Made by a program: the position numbers and the translations under genes. A DNA stretch of 64,000 nt, taken from positions 416,001 through 480,000 of the forward strand of contig CAWDVR010000003.1 in assembly GCA_963805975.1 (NCBI GenBank), in the 5' to 3' direction. Positions 51,300 to 59,165 of the stretch are shown here, piece by piece (the stretch's first letter is position 1; every line of letters starts with the position of its first letter). This DNA is from an uncultured Acidobacteriota bacterium. GTDB taxonomy: Bacteria > Acidobacteriota > Thermoanaerobaculia > Multivoradales > SZUA-115. The notes under the pieces were generated by a model. That model ran no database searches and was not told the origin of the DNA. It saw nothing but the letters and a program-made list of their open reading frames with translations.

Positions 51300-52538
51300 T
51301 CAAGGACGCTCTGCCAAGAAATCGAGCATCGTCGCGAGCGTCTCGCGCTCGAGGATCATCTCGAAGTGCGGGCCGTGGAGGTCGAAGGGCGGGTGGGAGA
51401 GGGCAGCGCTCTCCTGGGGCGAGAGAGAGTGCTGGCTGGCCTGGGCGGCGTGGCCGTCGCCGCGGGCCCTGGCGAGGGCCGCGAGCCTCGGCCGCGCCTC
51501 CAGCCAGGGGTCGCCGGTGAAGTGCGTCCGCCAGCGCCCGCCGCTTTCCACGAGCACGGCACGCCAGGGTGTGGGCTCGTCGAGGCTCTGGAGCGAGGCG
51601 TAGCGAGTGGCGCCGAAGGTGGGCGAGTCCGCTGCGAGGAGCTTGCGCAGGCGCCGGGCGCGGTCCAGGGAACGGGTGAGGAGGGCCAGGCGGTCCTCCT
51701 CCGGGCCCAGGAGGTCGAACGGCTTCACCGCCAGGCGTCGCGCCGCCCTCGCGCCCCAGATCGACCAGCCGTAGCGCCGCCAGCTCTCGGCCGCGAAGAG
51801 GTCGATGGCGAGTGGCTGGCCCTCCTCGTCCAGGAAGAGGTCCGCAGGCTCGGTCGGCAGATCCTGGTAGAGCGACGGGAACGTGAACAGGGTCTCCGGC
51901 GCCCAGGTCCGACCGACGAACCCGGCGTAGGAGCGCCCGCGGTTCATCTCGCGGAGGATGCGGAGACTGCCGGCGTTGGAGGTGCCGACCAACAGGAGCT
52001 GCTCGATCACGACGCCGGGGACCGGGGCCGCCCGCCCGGCCTCCGCCTCTTCGAGCGAGGCCGCGCCGTACTTGGCGAGGTACCGGCAGATGCGCTCCCC
52101 GGCCGACTGGCAGATGAGCGCCACCCGCAGCTCGGGGCCGCCGCGCAGCTCGTGGAGTGCCTCGAGCCGCGCGGCGAGCGAGGCCACGGCCTCAAGATTG
52201 TCCTGCCGCCAGTCATAGGGGAAGACGAAGAAGCTCTCACCGGGCTCGGGGTCGAGGAGGTTGCCGGCCGTGAAGCCGTTGGCCTCCAGCAGGCGGACGA
52301 TGGGGCCGTAGACGTCCTTTTTCCACATGCCAAGCGGCAGCGGGATCTCCTCGATGACGTCGAAGGCCGTGACGCTTCGCGGCTTCAGACCGGGCTTCAC
52401 CGGCAGGGCCAGCGCCCTCCCGCCGTCCCGCGGCGAGAACAACCGCGCCGCCGTGCCCCACTCGACGCGGCAGGTCTCCTCGTCGCGAAGCTGCGAGCCC
52501 GTGATCCCCGGTACCAGCACTACCACCCGCTCGCCCAC
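51300..52538 (-). CDS. alpha/beta-hydrolase, LCAT/lipase-like
   Basis: VLVPGITGSQL, FPYDWRQD, CQSAG nucleophile elbow, GTSNAGS, GDG and terminal His. Confidence 0.78.
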   Translation of the reverse strand: MGERVVVLVPGITGSQLRDEETCRVEWGTAARLFSPRDGGRALALPVKPGLKPRSVTAFDVIEEIPLPLGMWKKDVYGPIVRLLEANGFTAGNLLDPEPGESFFVFPYDWRQDNLEAVASLAARLEALHELRGGPELRVALICQSAGERICRYLAKYGAASLEEAEAGRAAPVPGVVIEQLLLVGTSNAGSLRILREMNRGRSYAGFVGRTWAPETLFTFPSLYQDLPTEPADLFLDEEGQPLAIDLFAAESWRRYGWSIWGARAARRLAVKPFDLLGPEEDRLALLTRSLDRARRLRKLLAADSPTFGATRYASLQSLDEPTPWRAVLVESGGRWRTHFTGDPWLEARPRLAALARARGDGHAAQASQHSLSPQESAALSHPPFDLHGPHFEMILERETLATMLDFLAERP

Positions 52539-52601: not shown

Positions 52602-53237
52602 CTAGAGGCTCACCTCTCCGGCCGGTCTGCTCCGGTTGCGGTAGAGGCTCTCGTCCACGGCACCGATCATCCTTTCGAGGTCCAGGCGGTGGTCGAGGAA
52701 GGCGTTCATGCGCTCGGCCTCGGCGCGGGGGTTGGCGACCACGGCCTTGTAGTCCACGTACAGCACCTCGAACTGCGGCGCGGTGCGCAAGAGGTACTGC
52801 GCCTTCCAGAGGTGGTCCTCGAAGACCTCGGTCATGCGCCCGTCGCCGGCCGCCGGCTCTTCGCCGCGGTGTGCGAGCATCTTCTGCTGCGAGGCCAGCA
52901 CCTCGCCCAGGTCGCGCCGCAGGAAGATCACGCGGTAGTTGTTGGCGGCCGGGAGCTCCTTGAGCAGATAGGAGATGACCTTGATCGCCTTGCCGCGGGC
53001 GGCCCGGAGCCAGCTCTTGTCGGTCTCGTTCGCCAGGTCCTTGACCCGCTCGTGCTCGAAGTAGCCCTTGGGGTTGTCCTCGTCGGCGGTGCGCAGGCCG
53101 TCGGTGTGAGTGACGAGGCCGCCGGCTTCGAGCATCTTCATCGCCATCGAAGTGCCGGAGCGCGGCAGCCCCGAGACCACGACGACCGGCTCGCCGTGGC
53201 GCAGCCGCCGCCAGGTCCGTTGCAGTGGAGAAGCCAT
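52602..53237 (-). CDS. PAPS-dependent sulfotransferase-family protein
   Basis: VVSGLPRSGTSM 5'-PSB loop, DNPKGYFE and RRDLGEVLASQ motifs. Confidence 0.88.
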   Translation of the reverse strand: MASPLQRTWRRLRHGEPVVVVSGLPRSGTSMAMKMLEAGGLVTHTDGLRTADEDNPKGYFEHERVKDLANETDKSWLRAARGKAIKVISYLLKELPAANNYRVIFLRRDLGEVLASQQKMLAHRGEEPAAGDGRMTEVFEDHLWKAQYLLRTAPQFEVLYVDYKAVVANPRAEAERMNAFLDHRLDLERMIGAVDESLYRNRSRPAGEVSL

Positions 53238-53359
53238 CGTCTGGGCCGCTTGATCTGTCGAGGGGCTTGTCGCTACACTCCGAAGGCCGCCCGGCCCGCG
53301 GGCGGACTTTTATAGCACACGCTTCCACGATCCCCTACGCCGCCGCCCCGAGCCCCCGG

Positions 53360-55543
53360 TTGATCGCTCCACCTCGCTCCGTACGACCTCGCCTGCGCGC
53401 CGGATGGCTGCTCGCGGCCGGCTGCGCGCTGGTGGCGGCCTGGGCCCTGCCCGCCCAGGGCTACATCGGCCCCGGCGCCGGTTTCGCGCTGCTGTCGTCG
53501 TTCATGGTGGTCCTCACCACCATCATCCTCGCCTTCCTCTCGCTCCTCATCTGGCCATTCCGCGCTGTCTACCGGCGGCTCTCCCGCGGCAAGGCTCCCA
53601 GGCCGGTGATCAAGCGGATGATCGTGGTCGGTTTCGACGGCCAGGAGCCCAAGCTCACCGACCGCTGGATGGCCGAGGGCAAGCTCCCCAACTTCAAGCG
53701 GCTGGCCGAGATGGGCTGCTACCGGCGGCTGCGCTCCACCTACCCGTCGATCTCGCCGGTGGCTTGGTCCTCGTTCTCGACCGGCACGCACCCGGCCAAG
53801 CACAACATCTTCGACTTCCTGGACCGCGACCGCCGCACCTACCTGCCGATGCTGTCCTCGACCCACATCGGCGGCGTCGACAAGTTCTTGAAGATCGGCA
53901 AGTGGAAGATCCCGCTCGGCAAGCCGGACATCCGCCTGCTGCGGCGCTCGACGCCGTTCTGGACGCTCTTGGGCGAGCGCGGCATCTGGAGCACGGTGCT
54001 CCGCGTGCCCATCACCTTCCCGCCGGACAAGTTCTACGGCGCCGAGCTCTCGGCCATGGCGGTACCGGACCTCCTGGGCACGCAGGGCACGTTCCTGCTC
54101 TACACCACGCGACCGGCGCGCAAGTTCAAGGAGGGCGGCATCCGGGTGGGCCTCGAGCCGGCCGCAGGATCGAACGGCGCGCGGTTCGAGACCCGGATCG
54201 ACGGCCCGGAGAACTCCTTCCTCGAAGGCAGCCCGCCGCCGCCGCTCTCGGTGCCGATGGCGATCGAGCTCGATCGCGCCGCGGGAACCGCGAAGGTGAA
54301 GATCGGCGACGAGGACGAGCTGACCTTGAAGCCGAGCCAGCTCAGCGGCTGGGTGACCCTCCCCTTCAAGGCCGCGCCCGCCGTCAAGGTGAAAGGCATC
54401 TGCCGCTTCCAGGTGCTGGAGATGGGCGAGCACTTCTCGCTCTACCTGTCACCGATCAACATCGATCCCGACTCGCCGGCCATGCCCATCGCCCACCCGT
54501 CCTACTACGCCACCTACCTGGCGAAGAAGCTCGGCCCCTTCGCCACGCTGGGGCTGGCGGAGGACACGTGGTCGCTCAACGAAGGCGTGGTGGACGACGG
54601 CACCTTCCTGCAGCAGGCCCTGGACATCGACGACGAGCGCCGGGGGATGTTCTTCGCGGCGCTCGACCGCCTGCGCAAGGGCTCGCTGGTCTGCGTGTTC
54701 GACGCCACGGACCGCGTGCAGCACATGTTCTGGCGCTATCTCGAGAAGGGCCACCCGGCGACCCAGGGCAAAGAGGCGGGGCCGCACGCCAACGCCATCG
54801 AGGAGCTGTACCAGCGAAACGACGCGCTGGTCGGCCAGGTGATGAAGAAGCTCAGGAAGGGCGACCTCCTGATCGTCTGCTCGGACCACGGCTTCACCTC
54901 CTTCCGCCGCGGCGTCAACCTGAACGGCTGGCTGCTCGCGAACGGATACCTGGCGCTCAAGGAAGGCGCGGACGGCTCGGGCGAGTGGCTGGCCGACGTG
55001 GACTGGTCGAAGACCCGCGCCTATGCGCTGGGCCTCACCGGCATGTTCCTCAACCTGAAGGGCCGCGAGGCGCAGGGCATCGTCGAGCCGGGCGCGGAGG
55101 CCGAGGCGCTCAAGGCCGAGATCCTCCGCAAGATGTCCGGTCTGAAGGACACGGAGAAGAGCGAGATCGGCATCAACGAGGTGTTCGACACCGCCAAGCT
55201 CTATAGCGGCCCGTACCTCGAGAACGCGCCGGACTTCATCGTCGGCTACAACCACGGCTACCGCGTGTCGTGGGACTGCGCGAGCGGCATGGTGGCGGGG
55301 CCCGTCTTCGAGGACAACGTGAAGGCGTGGAGCGGCGACCACTGCGTGGACCCGCGGATCGTGCCCGGCGTGCTGTTCTCGAGCCACGCGATCGACGACG
55401 ACGACCCGGCGCTGATGGATCTCGCGCCCACGGCGCTCCGCCTGTTCGGCCTGGAGCCGCCCAAGCACATGGACGGCAAGCCGCTGTTCAAGCCCGGGCC
55501 GCTCGAGACGGACCCGTTCGCGAAGCCGGTGGTGGCGGGATGA
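53360..55543 (+). CDS. AlkP-superfamily phosphodiesterase/NPP-like protein with signal peptide and YIGPGAG-TM anchor
   Basis: GFDG, SPVAWSSFSTG, DRVQH, SDHGF and SGDH motifs. Probable TTG start at 53360. Confidence 0.88.
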   Translation: MIAPPRSVRPRLRAGWLLAAGCALVAAWALPAQGYIGPGAGFALLSSFMVVLTTIILAFLSLLIWPFRAVYRRLSRGKAPRPVIKRMIVVGFDGQEPKLTDRWMAEGKLPNFKRLAEMGCYRRLRSTYPSISPVAWSSFSTGTHPAKHNIFDFLDRDRRTYLPMLSSTHIGGVDKFLKIGKWKIPLGKPDIRLLRRSTPFWTLLGERGIWSTVLRVPITFPPDKFYGAELSAMAVPDLLGTQGTFLLYTTRPARKFKEGGIRVGLEPAAGSNGARFETRIDGPENSFLEGSPPPPLSVPMAIELDRAAGTAKVKIGDEDELTLKPSQLSGWVTLPFKAAPAVKVKGICRFQVLEMGEHFSLYLSPINIDPDSPAMPIAHPSYYATYLAKKLGPFATLGLAEDTWSLNEGVVDDGTFLQQALDIDDERRGMFFAALDRLRKGSLVCVFDATDRVQHMFWRYLEKGHPATQGKEAGPHANAIEELYQRNDALVGQVMKKLRKGDLLIVCSDHGFTSFRRGVNLNGWLLANGYLALKEGADGSGEWLADVDWSKTRAYALGLTGMFLNLKGREAQGIVEPGAEAEALKAEILRKMSGLKDTEKSEIGINEVFDTAKLYSGPYLENAPDFIVGYNHGYRVSWDCASGMVAGPVFEDNVKAWSGDHCVDPRIVPGVLFSSHAIDDDDPALMDLAPTALRLFGLEPPKHMDGKPLFKPGPLETDPFAKPVVAG

Positions 55544-57501
55544 GGGGCAGGGTAAGGGTCTCTGCCCTTGCGGCGCTCGGTCTCGCGCTTCTCACTCTCG
55601 CCGCCTGCGGCAGGAAGCACGACGCCAACGGCCCGCGCATGATCGTGCTCGGCTTCGACGGCATGGACTATGCGCTGACGCAGAAGCTCATGGCCGAGGG
55701 GCGGCTCCCGAACCTCGCCAAGCTGGCGGCGGAGGGCGGCTTCCAGTCGCTCGCCACCGCCGTGCCGCCGCAGAGCCCGGTCGCCTGGTCGAACTTCATC
55801 ACCGGCCTCGACGCCGGCGGTCACGGCATCTTCGACTTCATCCACCGCGACCCCAACACCATGACCCCCTACCTCTCGACCAGCCACACCGAGGCGGCGG
55901 GGAACGTGGTCAAGATCGGCAAGTACCAGTTCCCGCTCTCCGGCGGCAGGGTGGAGCTGCTGCGCCACGGCCAGCCGTTCTGGGACGTGCTCGAAGCGCA
56001 CGGCGTCGAGACCACCGTGGTGCGCATGCCGGCGAACTTTCCGCCCTCGGAGAAAGCGACGCGCGAGCTCTCCGGCATGGGCACGCCGGACATCCTCGGA
56101 ACGCCCGGCACCTTCACCTTCTACACCTCGGAGCTCTTCGCCTACTACGGCAAGCAGGTTTCGGGCGGCGAGGTGCACGAGGTCTTCGTCGAGGACGGCA
56201 TGGTCAAGGCCCAGCTCTACGGGCCGAACAACCCCTTCCTCTTGAAGTCCGAGAAGGTGGCGGCCGACTTCACGGCGGTGATCGACCCGGTGGAGCCGGT
56301 GGTCAAGCTCAGCGTGGGCGACGAGCAGCGGGTGCTGAAAGTAGGGGAGTGGAGCGACTGGGTGCCGGTCGACTTCAAGCTCATCCCCACCCAGAACCTG
56401 CGCGGCATCTGCCGCTTCTATTTGAAGTCTTTGCAGCCGGAGTTCCAGCTCTTCGTCTCGCCGATCAACTTCGACCCGCTCGCCCCGGCGCTGCCGCTCT
56501 CGCACCCGGAGGACTACGCGGCCGAGCTGGCGGAGGCCACGGGCCGCTTCTATACCCAGGAGATGCCGGAGGACACCAAGGCCTACAAGGAAGGCATCTT
56601 CTCGACCGACGAGTTCCTGACCCAGGCGCGCTACGTGGTCGACCACATGATCGAGCAGTACGACTACGTGCTCTCCCAGTACAGCTCGGGCCTGCTGTTC
56701 TACTACTTCGGCAACACCGACCAGGTGGCACACATGATGTGGCGCACCCTGGACCCCGGCCACCCGGCCTACAGCGCCGAGAAGGACGGGCCGTACGAGG
56801 ACGTGATCCCGGCGCTCTACGAGAAGTTCGACGGCATCGTCGGCCGGACCCGCGAGCGGATGCCCGCCGGCACCATGCTGGTGGTGATGTCCGACCACGG
56901 CTTTTCTTCCTGGCGCCGGGCGGTACACCTCAACTCCTGGCTGCGCGACAACGGCTACCTCGTGCCGCTCGATCCCGGCCGCAAGACCGACGCCGGCTAC
57001 TTCTCGAACGTCGACTGGACGAAGACGCGCGCCTACGCCCTGGGCCTGAACGGCCTCTACGTCAACCTCAGAGGGCGCGAGAAGAACGGCATCGTCGAGT
57101 CGACCGATCGCCTGCCGCTGATGAAGGAGATCGCCGGCAAGCTCCTCGCGCTCACCGATCCCAAGACCGGCGAGCGGGCCGTCACCAAGGCCTACCTCCG
57201 CGAAGAGGTCTACCAGGACCGGGAGTACATCGAGATCGGCGCCGACATCCAGGTCGGCTACGCCAAGACCTACCGCGGCTCGAACGAGTCGGCCCTGGGC
57301 GGCATGACCGAGGAGCAGTTCACGGACAACCTGAGCGCCTGGAGCGGCGACCACTGCATGGACCACGAGGCCGTGCCCGGCGTGCTGTTCACGAGCCGCA
57401 AGCTCCGGAAGCCGGCCACCAGCCTGAAAGACCTGGCGGCCTCGATCCTCACCGAGTTCGGAGTGGAAGGGTTTCCGCTGCGGGAGCGCCGCTCGCCCTA
57501 G
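55540..57501 (+). CDS. AlkP-superfamily phosphodiesterase/NPP-like lipoprotein
   Basis: ATGA overlap with the upstream gene, LAAC lipobox, GFDG, SPVAWSNFITG, DQVAH, SDHGF and SGDH motifs. Confidence 0.88.
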   Translation: MRGRVRVSALAALGLALLTLAACGRKHDANGPRMIVLGFDGMDYALTQKLMAEGRLPNLAKLAAEGGFQSLATAVPPQSPVAWSNFITGLDAGGHGIFDFIHRDPNTMTPYLSTSHTEAAGNVVKIGKYQFPLSGGRVELLRHGQPFWDVLEAHGVETTVVRMPANFPPSEKATRELSGMGTPDILGTPGTFTFYTSELFAYYGKQVSGGEVHEVFVEDGMVKAQLYGPNNPFLLKSEKVAADFTAVIDPVEPVVKLSVGDEQRVLKVGEWSDWVPVDFKLIPTQNLRGICRFYLKSLQPEFQLFVSPINFDPLAPALPLSHPEDYAAELAEATGRFYTQEMPEDTKAYKEGIFSTDEFLTQARYVVDHMIEQYDYVLSQYSSGLLFYYFGNTDQVAHMMWRTLDPGHPAYSAEKDGPYEDVIPALYEKFDGIVGRTRERMPAGTMLVVMSDHGFSSWRRAVHLNSWLRDNGYLVPLDPGRKTDAGYFSNVDWTKTRAYALGLNGLYVNLRGREKNGIVESTDRLPLMKEIAGKLLALTDPKTGERAVTKAYLREEVYQDREYIEIGADIQVGYAKTYRGSNESALGGMTEEQFTDNLSAWSGDHCMDHEAVPGVLFTSRKLRKPATSLKDLAASILTEFGVEGFPLRERRSP

Positions 57502-57520
57502 CGGCACCAAGGAGTAAGCG

Positions 57521-57715
57521 ATGTTTGGAACCGTCAAGATAAAGCTCGACAAGGAACTGGTCGAGCGGGTGAAGAAAGTGAGCGACGTGGCCGGGTACTC
57601 CTCGCCCGAGGAGTTCATCACCCATGCGCTCGAAAAGGAGCTGGCGAAGCTCGAGGACGCCGGCTCCGAAGAAGAGATGAAGAAGCGCCTGCGCGGTCTC
57701 GGCTACATCTCCTGA
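57521..57715 (+). CDS. small RHH/CopG-like protein with C-terminal RLRGLGY motif
   Basis: AAGGAG SD; VKIKLDKELVERV..GYSSPEEFI; ends EEEMKKRLRGLGYIS. Confidence 0.8.
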   Translation: MFGTVKIKLDKELVERVKKVSDVAGYSSPEEFITHALEKELAKLEDAGSEEEMKKRLRGLGYIS

Positions 57716-57719
57716 GGCG

Positions 57720-58568
57720 ATGTCCACCGTCAACGCCCTGCTGCGCCCGCTGTTCGACGCGTTGCTCTCCCCCTTCGCGGGCCTGCCCGCCTGGGCGGGG
57801 CTGGCGGTGGTGTCCCTCGTCGTCTCGGTGCTGATGCTCCTGGTCTACAAGCGGTTCTCGAACCAGGCCAAGCTCGAGGAGGTCAAGCGCCAGATCTACG
57901 CCGGCATCTTCGAGATCCGCCTGTTCAACGACGACTTCCGCGCCATCTTCCGGGCCCAGGGCGAGATCCTGCGCCACAACCTGCGCTATCTGGGCTACTC
58001 GCTGGTGCCCATGGCGTGGATGCTGGTGCCGCTGCTGCTGATCGTGGCGCAGCTCCAGTTCCACTACGGCTACGAGGGTCTGAAGCCGGGCGAGCCGACG
58101 CTGCTCACGGTCAAGCTCAAAGAGGACTGGAGCAGCCGTTCGCTGGCGGCCGACGCCACGGGCAAGCCGCGGGTGACCCTGGAGGCGCCGGCGGGCTTCA
58201 CGGTGGAGACCCCGGCGGTGTGGTCGCCGTCCGAGAAGGAGCTCGCCTGGCGGGTGGTGGCGGAGCGTCCGGGAAGCTACGAGCTGAAGCTCCAGGCCGG
58301 CGGCGAGCCGCTCGCCAAGTCCGCCGTCAGCGCGGACGAGATCATCCGCCGCTCGCCGATCCGGGTCGGTACGAGCTTCTTCGATCAGCTCCTCTACCCG
58401 GCGGAGGACCCGGTGCCCGCCGCGAGCGCCGTCGAGTCCATCACTCTCGGCTACCCCGAGGCCGAGGTCAGCCTCTTCGGCTGGAACACGCACTGGATCA
58501 TCGCGTTCCTCATCCTCACGATCGTCTTCGCCTTTGCCCTGAAGGGGTTGTTCGGGGTGACGATCTAG
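57720..58568 (+). CDS. EMC3/TMCO1 (DUF106)-like three-TM membrane protein with extracytoplasmic insertion
   Basis: Amphipathic N-helix, TM1, YKRFSNQAKL helical hairpin, SLVPMAWMLVPLL TM2, ~130-aa beta-rich loop, FGW..HW TM3 ending KGLFGV. Confidence 0.65.
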   Translation: MSTVNALLRPLFDALLSPFAGLPAWAGLAVVSLVVSVLMLLVYKRFSNQAKLEEVKRQIYAGIFEIRLFNDDFRAIFRAQGEILRHNLRYLGYSLVPMAWMLVPLLLIVAQLQFHYGYEGLKPGEPTLLTVKLKEDWSSRSLAADATGKPRVTLEAPAGFTVETPAVWSPSEKELAWRVVAERPGSYELKLQAGGEPLAKSAVSADEIIRRSPIRVGTSFFDQLLYPAEDPVPAASAVESITLGYPEAEVSLFGWNTHWIIAFLILTIVFAFALKGLFGVTI

Positions 58569-58611: not shown

Positions 58612-58842
58612 ATGAAGTTGAAGACATCCGTCACACTTTCAGAAGAGACAGTCCGAGCGCTCGACGAGATCGCGGGCCCGGGCGGGAACCGCTCGCGGGT
58701 CATCGAGGAAGCGATGGGCGAGTTCGTGCGGCGCCGGAGCCGAGAGCTGCGCGATACGCGTGACCTCGAGATCATCAACCGCAACGCCGAGCAGCTCAAC
58801 CGCGAGGTCGAGGACATCCTGGCCTACCAGACGGAGCCGTGA
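58612..58842 (+). CDS. RHH antitoxin
   Basis: [21 protein letters not shown]; GTGA overlap with the toxin gene. Confidence 0.85.
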
Positions 58843-59165
58843 GGCGCGGAGACCTCTATCGCGTCCGCCGGCCGGGTGGAGGTGATCCCAAGAAGAGCCG
58901 GGTCTTCGTCATCGTCAGCCGCGAGGCGCTCGTCGAGTCCCGGTTCTCCACCGTGATCTGTGCTCCGGTGCTCAGCCAGCGCGATGGGCTCGCCACTCAG
59001 GTGGACGTCGGCCCGGACGATGGGTTGAAGCATGCCTCGAGCATCCACTGCGACGCGCTCGTCAGCCTCCCGAAATCGGTACTCACGGACTACGTGAGCT
59101 CCCTCGGTCCAGGGAGCATCCGCGCCCTGGACCGAGCGCTTCGCATTGCCCTTGCTGTGGAGTGA
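58839..59165 (+). CDS. PemK/MazF-family endoribonuclease toxin
   Basis: [27 protein letters not shown] and LDRALRIAL motifs. Confidence 0.9.

Follow-up and report, generated by a model that had tools for sequence, protein, structure and literature searches.

The window analysed here is a 64,000-nucleotide stretch of DNA from an uncultured Acidobacteriota bacterium (assembly GCA_963805975.1, contig CAWDVR010000003.1, positions 416,001 to 480,000). At positions 52602-58568 it carries a cassette of five genes, for a sulfotransferase of the 3'-phosphoadenosine 5'-phosphosulfate (PAPS) type, two enzymes of the alkaline phosphatase (AlkP) fold, a small protein and a membrane protein. The sulfotransferase gene (52602-53237, minus strand; PF13469, E 4.5e-11, and PF00685) diverges from the other four, which lie on the plus strand. 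These are AlkP1 (53360-55543; PF01663), whose AlphaFold2 (AF2) model has a predicted local distance difference test (pLDDT) value of 92.8 and whose best Foldseek match is the Xac nucleotide pyrophosphatase/phosphodiesterase (NPP) 7n1s (E 1.3e-11); AlkP2 (55540-57501; PF01663), a paralogue of AlkP1 predicted to be exported, in the window as a lipoprotein; a 64-aa protein resembling ribbon-helix-helix (RHH) proteins (57521-57715) with an acidic linker and an RLxxLGY tail (57686-57712); and an Oxa1-superfamily membrane protein of the DUF106/EMC3-TMCO1 type (57720-58568; AF2 pLDDT 91.3). The two AlkP genes overlap in an ATGA at 55540-55543, a gap of 19 nt separates AlkP2 from the small open reading frame (ORF), and one of 4 nt separates the latter from the membrane gene. 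Judging from the N-termini of homologues, AlkP1 probably starts at the TTG at 53360 rather than at the mechanically called GTG at 53225.

The membrane gene was present in 17 of 41 relatives and in 71 of 251 genomes of the phylum (70 of 248 without three unpublished genomes; a 72nd, weak match, in G045, was dropped as spurious). The 156 cassette loci retrieved correspond to 141 distinct ones, and the small gene lay directly upstream of the membrane gene in all 141. AlkP and sulfotransferase genes were counted in the 123 loci with at least 6 kb of upstream sequence: at least one AlkP gene was found in every one of them, both in 117, and a sulfotransferase gene in 89 (77 divergent, 12 on the same strand). 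When AlkP1 or AlkP2 was absent locally, it was located elsewhere in the genome in the five cases examined. Since the membrane gene recurs across the relatives and the phylum with constant neighbours, the grouping is not due to chance, and the cassette is confirmed as real, co-inherited and widespread. Outside the phylum of the window, the phylum of G283 (Myxococcota by label) gave strong matches to the membrane gene in 15 of 151 genomes, that of G284 in 10 of 10 and that of G285 (Gammaproteobacteria by label) in 1 of 301; the 14 strong loci retrieved from the first of these phyla contained AlkP1 in 13, the small gene in 13 and the sulfotransferase in 12. The bacterial DUF106 branch comprises 1051 clusters (50% identity, E<=1e-30). 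An earlier note on this DNA, made from the letters alone, had described the five genes with their gaps, the ATGA overlap, the divergent sulfotransferase and the motifs shared by the AlkP twins, all of which were reproduced. It had also made its case depend on co-occurrence in other genomes, and this was borne out: in the cassette family the membrane and small proteins were never found without AlkP (all 123 loci).

The membrane protein and the twin AlkP enzymes

The product of the last gene is a DUF106-type member of the Oxa1 superfamily. Helices span residues 2-19, 24-46, 49-68, 73-116 and 259-274 of its AF2 model, which together with hydropathy gives a peripheral EH1 helix, a first transmembrane (TM) segment, a cytoplasmic hairpin, TM2, an extracytoplasmic Ig-like insert and TM3. 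The N-terminal peripheral helix, the three-TM core and the cytoplasmic helical hairpin after TM1 are Oxa1 hallmarks. A profile of the family compared with the PDB gave the archaeal MJ0480 (5c8j) as the only significant match (E 5.6e-10), and PF01956 was matched by 62 of 118 homologues at E<=1 (best 2.5e-5), and JGI names agree with this family; a Pfam scan of the window protein itself gave no match. The top match in a VIA structural search was 7tut_8, which we take to be the TMCO1 chain of the multipass translocon, with a root-mean-square deviation of 4.1 over 136 aligned residues spanning model residues 18-282 and a Z of 8.5, which is not a high value for helical proteins and barely exceeds those of unrelated helical matches. 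Foldseek matches of the model were confined to the Ig-like domain, none at E<=0.001, and therefore say nothing on the membrane core. W259 in the last TM is invariant and S47, Q49 and Q111 are at least 90% conserved; no conserved mid-membrane Arg was seen in the conservation profile. The protein is not a bacterial YidC: it has three TMs instead of five and does not match PF02096, a family that is also missing from the 25 listed for the 118 homologues, and the host genome carries a normal YidC elsewhere. No EMC6-like gene was seen among the recurring neighbours of the 141 loci, in a survey confined to those neighbourhoods.

In EH1, the three-TM core, the hairpin, the Trp of the last TM and profile homology the protein resembles DUF106/Ylp1 (MJ0480, PDB 5C8J), EMC3, TMCO1 and GET1, as described in the available parts of PMC8675477 and PMC8887752, where this branch is treated as archaeal and eukaryotic. 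It differs from them in being bacterial, in existing in addition to YidC, in its Ig-like insert between TM2 and TM3 and in its link with a single partner helix and with genes for sulfation. The shortest members, of about 142-144 aa (L346:9057-9482 and L347:7922-8353), lack the insert and are near-minimal Oxa1 cores. A DUF106 fragment joined to a sulfotransferase (P0454) looks like a frameshift read-through and was left out of the counts.

AlkP1 and AlkP2 are 40% identical over 618 aa, and both contain the SPVAW, SDHG and WSGDH motifs. Their sites are of the bimetal NPP type, COG3379-like, with a putative phosphodiesterase activity: the metal ligands (Asp, D-x-x-x-H, D-H and His, whose roles we assign from family knowledge) and a Ser/Thr nucleophile are invariant or nearly so. 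The putative nucleophile of AlkP1, Ser132 in SPVAW (53753-53755, plus strand), is at least 90% conserved and was aligned to phosphonoacetate hydrolase; we take its position, partly from knowledge of the family, to be that of the NPP/PhnA nucleophile. Its counterpart in AlkP2 would be Ser79 (55774-55776, plus strand). Neither enzyme looks like a formylglycine (S1) sulfatase, since S-P-V-A-W stands in place of C/S-x-P-x-R and PF00884 is not matched.

The N-termini of the twins place them differently. In 110 of 113 AlkP1 orthologues a cleavable signal peptide is followed by a tyrosine arm, a TM segment and a basic stretch, and because of this succession the catalytic domain is predicted to be cytoplasmic. 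None of the 127 AlkP2 orthologues has the arm; 83 of them carry a lipobox-like motif (Cys23 in the window, 55606-55608), and several others of those shown have twin-arginine-like or other signals. These signals predict that the twins work on opposite faces of the membrane, AlkP1 inside and AlkP2 outside. Genomes that lack both DUF106 and the small protein encode long solitary AlkP relatives (L184:8629-10800, L185:8589-10739 and L186:464-2632); these have a signal peptide, and a TM hairpin is inserted in their membrane-facing loop. The same loop is a short basic/aromatic hairpin in AlkP1 and AlkP2, and because of the TM hairpin of their solitary relatives the enzymes probably act at the membrane surface.

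The arm of the window AlkP1 (53462-53578, plus strand) begins at the mature N-terminal Tyr35 (codon 53462-53464) and consists of this residue, GPGAG and a long hydrophobic helix that has WP and basic residues at its end. The consensus is Y-[IV]-G-P-G-A-G, in which Y, G, P, G, A and G were invariant in 105 of 105 arms, although the selection pattern permitted Phe; an A-x-A-type cleavage site precedes the Tyr in 108 of 110. An Atlas search with the arm gave only one lead (0.75), and a match to the arm pattern in G013 was rejected as an internal chance match. When AlkP1 (residues 35-707) was modelled with the DUF106 protein in ESMFold2, the complex scored 0.69, the best of three controls 0.00; of 157 solved pairs, 116 attained the mark used for this score, as did 2 of 215 mismatched ones, and this mark fits only roughly here, with our own alignments. 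The runs agreed in at least 86% of contacts, with a partner pLDDT of at least 77. The modelled interface places AlkP1 helix 46-69 and residues 380-392 on hairpin 57-91 of DUF106, the side that contacts substrate helices in YidC, TMCO1 and EMC3 (available text of PMC8675477). The model supports a predicted binding of AlkP1 to DUF106, in which the helix of the former would rest on the hairpin of the latter.

Tyrosine arms, sulfotransferases and LGY tails in other loci

The arm also accompanies DUF106 proteins that have no AlkP partner. In all four weak, distant DUF106 matches outside the cassette family (a fifth, in G598, was left out of this count) a stand-alone arm microprotein was encoded directly upstream. 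A profile of these distant proteins aligned with the window family at 99.4% in hhalign and found members in 5 of 401 genomes, three of them new, and in one plasmid record. In total, eight such minimal loci were obtained (L351 was assigned by blastp only). The arm lay directly upstream of the DUF106 gene in 8/8 and a PF13469-type sulfotransferase gene directly downstream in 7/8; a periplasmic arylsulfate sulfotransferase (ASST) was found in 6/8, adjoining the arm in five, and the AlkP pair was absent. Four of these loci were retrieved after the hypothesis of a sulfate-carrying arm was formed, and arm, sulfotransferase and ASST were present in all four. Plasmid pD4M1B of Paroceanicella profunda D4M1 carries the four-gene run arylsulfotransferase, arm, DUF106, sulfotransferase. 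According to the available text of a 2026 review (PMC13426309), ASSTs take the sulfate from aryl-sulfate donors, and tyrosine peptides are among their acceptors; their natural substrates are described there as unidentified. Since ASSTs need an aryl sulfate, a sulfated arm Tyr would qualify as their donor. The genome of the window has an ASST in a separate polysaccharide locus (L188:3656-14242; G000:C6 ~245600-256200), beside Sat-CysC, a GT-C/PMT-like protein, a UDP-sugar dehydrogenase and a Wzx-like flippase; this locus is a candidate client pathway of the proposed shuttle.

A comparable layout was found with another branch of the Oxa1 superfamily. Scanning metagenomes with the pattern Y-[IL]-D-P-G-[TS]-G-S-M returned 121 loci, with flanks for 80. 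About half of these DPGTGS-type arms are stand-alone microproteins and about half start a longer protein, TagF-like (PF04464) where checked. A YidC-domain gene lay within 2.5 kb in 25 of 42 TagF-arm loci (14 of 16 where both flanks were present) and was fused to an AlkP fold in 22 of those 25; phosphoenolpyruvate mutase, cytidylyltransferase, aminotransferase and LicD genes were among the neighbours. These loci repeat the layout with another Oxa1 subfamily and another donor. They share with the cassette an Oxa1-family domain, an outward AlkP-fold enzyme (LtaS/sulfatase-fold) and a cytoplasmic nucleotide-donor transferase starting with a Tyr-x-x-Pro-Gly arm. They differ in that their Oxa1 domain is of the YidC type (PF02096) and fused, their donors are phosphonate or phosphate and their arm mostly lacks a signal peptide, whereas the window protein is DUF106-type and a separate gene. 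No description of these fusion loci was found in the open-access literature. A third arm system (L195, L210, L235, L253, L313, L314 and others) combines a stand-alone Y-L-D-P-G-[TS]-G-S microprotein with a methyltransferase-like gene of about 460 aa and membrane sulfatase-fold genes, and no Oxa1 gene is nearby.

The sulfotransferase of the cassette has neither a signal peptide nor a hydrophobic or TM segment and is predicted to be cytoplasmic. Both PF13469 and PF00685 are matched above the cut-off, as expected of a PAPS sulfotransferase, and GLPRSGTS is kept in the consensus of 89 sequences; no relative was found in the PDB. Among the 120 longer homologues listed, it is fused ahead of the AlkP1 signal helix in 41 and behind a short unit of AlkP, LGY and tetratricopeptide repeat (TPR) in 34, as counted by eye on a set that includes partial sequences and many close kin. 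By hand count it was present in 50 of 71 genomes with the cassette (49 of 70 without the unpublished G087) versus 10 of 180 others. Genes of the PAPS pathway (Sat, CysC, CysD/N, CysQ-like) were found in 44 of the 141 loci, with a CysQ-like PAP phosphatase gene in 24. The same domain (P0409-P0509) was also seen fused to methyltransferases, DegT-type aminotransferases, proteins named heptosyltransferases, APS kinase and Fe-S proteins, as a portable module linked to glycans.

The only Pfam match of the small protein is RHH_1, below the cut-off (E 0.005), and many of its 2115 homologues are named CopG/Arc/MetJ by JGI. It ends in the LGY tail in 141 of 141 loci; the tail was found on AlkP1, AlkP2 and the sulfotransferase in 1, 1 and 0 cases. 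The tail also occurs on 9 of 14 stand-alone CysC proteins, on some CysD and on 44 of 53 neighbouring sulfatase-fold ORFs. Reading the host genome by eye, the tail followed the domain in none of seven C-x-P-x-R sulfatases and in 16 of 20 non-Cys ones (mostly Thr-type), and most of the latter with a tail carry export signals. Completion of the sulfotransferase fold in trans by the tail fits poorly with exported tail-bearers. The tail residue is Tyr in 63 of 63 distinct terminal motifs. Genomes with the cassette contained a median of nine LGY tails (71 genomes) versus three in the 180 others, with 1.7 and 1.8 for a reversed-pattern control, and the count was higher with the cassette in 8 of 9 untied mixed families. 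At L046, L091, L120, L141 and L144 a second RHH-like protein with the tail stands upstream of the cassette together with sat/cysC/cysQ-like genes. In the phylum of G283 the gene divergent from AlkP1 encodes a small TPR lipoprotein with an LGY tail (L331:3801-4367, L334:7101-7694, L335:3665-4261, L339:13725-14282), which may be the periplasmic equivalent of the small RHH-like protein.

Several features were noted around the cassette in the window. A terminator-like GC hairpin with a T-run (53287-53305, plus strand) lies in the short divergent region just before the AlkP1 start, and no promoter consensus was found between the sulfotransferase gene and AlkP1. Directly 3' of the cassette stands a MazE-like/RHH antitoxin and PemK/MazF toxin pair (58612-59165, plus strand; PF02452, E 1.2e-12) that does not recur in other loci. 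Just downstream of the sulfotransferase gene, on the same strand, is an LCAT-like alpha/beta hydrolase (51300-52538, minus strand; weak PF02450), outside the recurring neighbours.

A possible route for sulfate across the inner membrane

We give about an even chance to the reading that the Tyr of the arm is a trans-membrane carrier of sulfate guided by DUF106. A four-step relay would run as follows. The sulfotransferase, with PAPS, would sulfate a tyrosine, either that of the arm directly or that of the LGY tail of the small protein; the Ser nucleophile of AlkP1 would then move the sulfuryl group onto Tyr35 of the arm. Thirdly, the arm would slide through the hydrophilic groove of the Oxa1 protein, the usual path of short polar N-terminal tails in this fold, and finally AlkP2 would take the group outside and pass it to clients. 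Candidates for this role are ASST and the many exported Thr-type proteins of the sulfatase fold that bear LGY tails; the latter would transfer sulfate to envelope glycans. In this detailed form, with the first, second and fourth steps running through LGY tails, the relay is rather unlikely. The tails may be second-tier carriers or only docking helices, and they are the weakest part of the model. More broadly, and only tentatively, we propose that the Oxa1/YidC groove has been taken over on two or more occasions, in the DUF106 and in the YidC type, to guide a Tyr-tipped helix that carries activated sulfate or phospho-groups across the inner membrane, that the sulfated arm would be the natural ASST donor, and that the AlkP twins would form a hub serving, through the LGY Tyr, about 20 exported transferases of the sulfatase fold.

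Several results weigh against the carrier. Every chemical step of it is drawn from sequence and models. Cleavage of the signal peptide leaves Tyr35 outside at first, so that the arm must move inward for loading, and this inward pose appears in no model; the complex model gave no confident position for arm residues 35-45, and the first ten AlkP1 residues have a pLDDT of 55 in AF2. Some of the eight minimal loci are closely related (L351 and L348 share 62% identity), their sulfotransferases and that of the window belong to different subfamilies with no blastp match at 1e-5, and none of the 156 cassette loci contains an ASST. A search at E<=1e-20 gave no match to the sulfotransferase in 21 of the 71 genomes with the cassette, and no PAPS gene is nearby in 97 of 141 loci. 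Of 36 loci with a stand-alone arm of the DPGTGS type, only one has a YidC neighbour, and the YxGPG and YxDPG arms are no more than putative homologues, judged by motif and layout. Finally, 16 cassette-free families average at least eight LGY tails, so that the tails do not depend on the cassette, and a requirement of the cassette for LGY-tailed sulfatases is ruled out; the small protein was found in none of five tail-rich cassette-free genomes, in a search without a positive control.

Three other explanations were weighed against the sulfate-carrying arm. The one that survives best, still an unlikely one, is a dedicated insertase or scaffold, in which DUF106 would insert the arm helix with its N-terminus outside, stay bound and link the inside and outside enzymes; the Tyr would be structural and a small molecule or lipid would carry the sulfate. 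The protein appears to retain the Oxa1 hallmarks throughout, its predicted contact with AlkP1 lies on the hairpin that receives substrates, and a signal followed by a short loop and a TM is a typical layout of Oxa1/YidC substrates. However, the host already has a normal YidC, and the arm of the minimal operons has no cargo domain to anchor, yet keeps its invariant Tyr between the sulfotransferase and ASST. A helix of 50 residues would hardly warrant a dedicated insertase if it did not perform the function itself. The earlier note had seen in the Oxa1 protein simply the system's own membrane-biogenesis factor; the carrier role fits better than this, because DUF106 travels with the Tyr arm, between sulfotransferase and ASST, even without AlkP.

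A lipid carrier seems less probable still. The sulfotransferase would put the sulfate on a lipid, or on a phenol or sugar linked to one, DUF106 would scramble the product across the membrane, and AlkP1 and AlkP2 would load and unload it on their respective faces, with the arm as an accessory like EMC6. AlkP enzymes of the LtaS/EptA type take groups from lipids, and the TM hairpin of the solitary AlkP relatives implies that this loop touches the membrane. Insertases scramble lipids through the same groove, but scrambling stops once a peptide occupies it (both in the available part of bioRxiv 2023.09.01.555937). No lipid-synthesis gene is among the top neighbour clusters of the 141 loci, and the invariant Tyr and the link to ASST would be left unexplained.

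The least probable is a phospho-group system, in which the AlkP twins would move or hydrolyse PAP, APS/PAPS or a nucleotide-activated phospho-ester, the arm might carry a phosphoryl group, as in the TagF version, and the sulfotransferase would be an optional tailoring neighbour: phosphoryl transfer is the family default, given the NPP-type site and fold and the Foldseek matches listed for AlkP1 (phosphodiesterases, phosphatases and phosphonoacetate hydrolase, no sulfatase among them, which also counts against the sulfate carrier), the sulfotransferase was not found in 21 of the 71 cassette genomes and the TagF/YidC parallel uses CDP/CMP-type donors, but the fusions of sulfotransferase and AlkP1, the enrichment of the sulfotransferase in cassette genomes and the neighbouring PAPS-pathway genes, with no recurring nucleotidyl-transferase gene and with a CysQ-like PAP phosphatase already encoded in 24 loci, speak for sulfate.

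The nearest known counterpart of the sulfate-carrying arm is found in the MBOAT–SGNH acyl shuttles (DltB/DltX/DltD, PatA/PatB), which, in the available text of PMC12148441, have a cytoplasmic activated donor, an invariant Tyr carrier on a membrane microprotein or tail and an extracytoplasmic Ser-nucleophile transferase of the envelope; the Tyr shuttle is proven there for acyl groups in DltX and PatA. The window Tyr stands at the mature N-terminus (YxGPG) whereas that of the known shuttles is in a C-terminal FxYxxF, an Oxa1 protein takes the place of the MBOAT partner and an AlkP-fold enzyme or ASST that of the outer SGNH enzyme, and the likely group is sulfate. Because an MBOAT protein, the FxYxxF motif and an SGNH transferase are all absent from the cassette (by Pfam and recurring neighbours), it may work like such a shuttle without being a member of the group. 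The two-step Cpz8 relay of caprazamycin reportedly runs through a small pyrone. The proposed window carrier differs from it as a protein tyrosine that would cross the membrane, and the ASST of the host genome lies outside the cassette. The likeness to the Cpz8/Cpz4 system lies in an aryl sulfate that is the product of a PAPS enzyme and then serves a PAPS-independent aryl sulfotransferase (ASST/AssT) as its donor; the donors of ASSTs and Cpz4 are treated in PMC13426309. In Halobacterium salinarum glycan sulfation depends on two AlkP/sulfatase-fold proteins, Agl30 and Agl31, of which one is bound to the membrane and the other soluble, a precedent for this fold adding sulfate; the evidence is genetic, the available text of PMC11980604 names no donor and describes no Oxa1 protein, arm or PAPS-type sulfotransferase, and the likeness is drawn from fold and putative role.

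Each part of the cassette comes from a known family; the combination is new as a system, and its mechanism is inferred. No description of this combination, or of the pairing of arm and Oxa1 protein with three enzyme sets, was found in the open-access literature, in agreement with what the earlier note had claimed, and the available parts of PMC11625862 describe no such route for sulfate. The earlier note's view of a dedicated, co-inherited inner-membrane machine for sulfate esters with an ER/archaeal-type Oxa1 protein is supported by the MJ0480 profile match, the linkage and the complex model. From the modelling of all pairs that it had suggested, the AlkP1–DUF106 complex, the one pair covered, passed. 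It had missed the placement predicted for the two AlkP enzymes, one on each face of the membrane, and the occurrence of the RLxxLGY tail as a tag common to many proteins.

The results place the 'archaeal/ER' DUF106 branch widely in bacteria, and the four-gene version in the cultured marine P. profunda D4M1 makes the idea directly testable. If the carrier is real, the Oxa1 family would gain a function beyond protein insertion or lipid scrambling, and sulfation outside the cytoplasm, where PAPS is not made, would be explained together with the natural donor of periplasmic ASSTs. The carrier reading also suggests that many proteins annotated as sulfatases in Acidobacteriota add sulfate and do not remove it.

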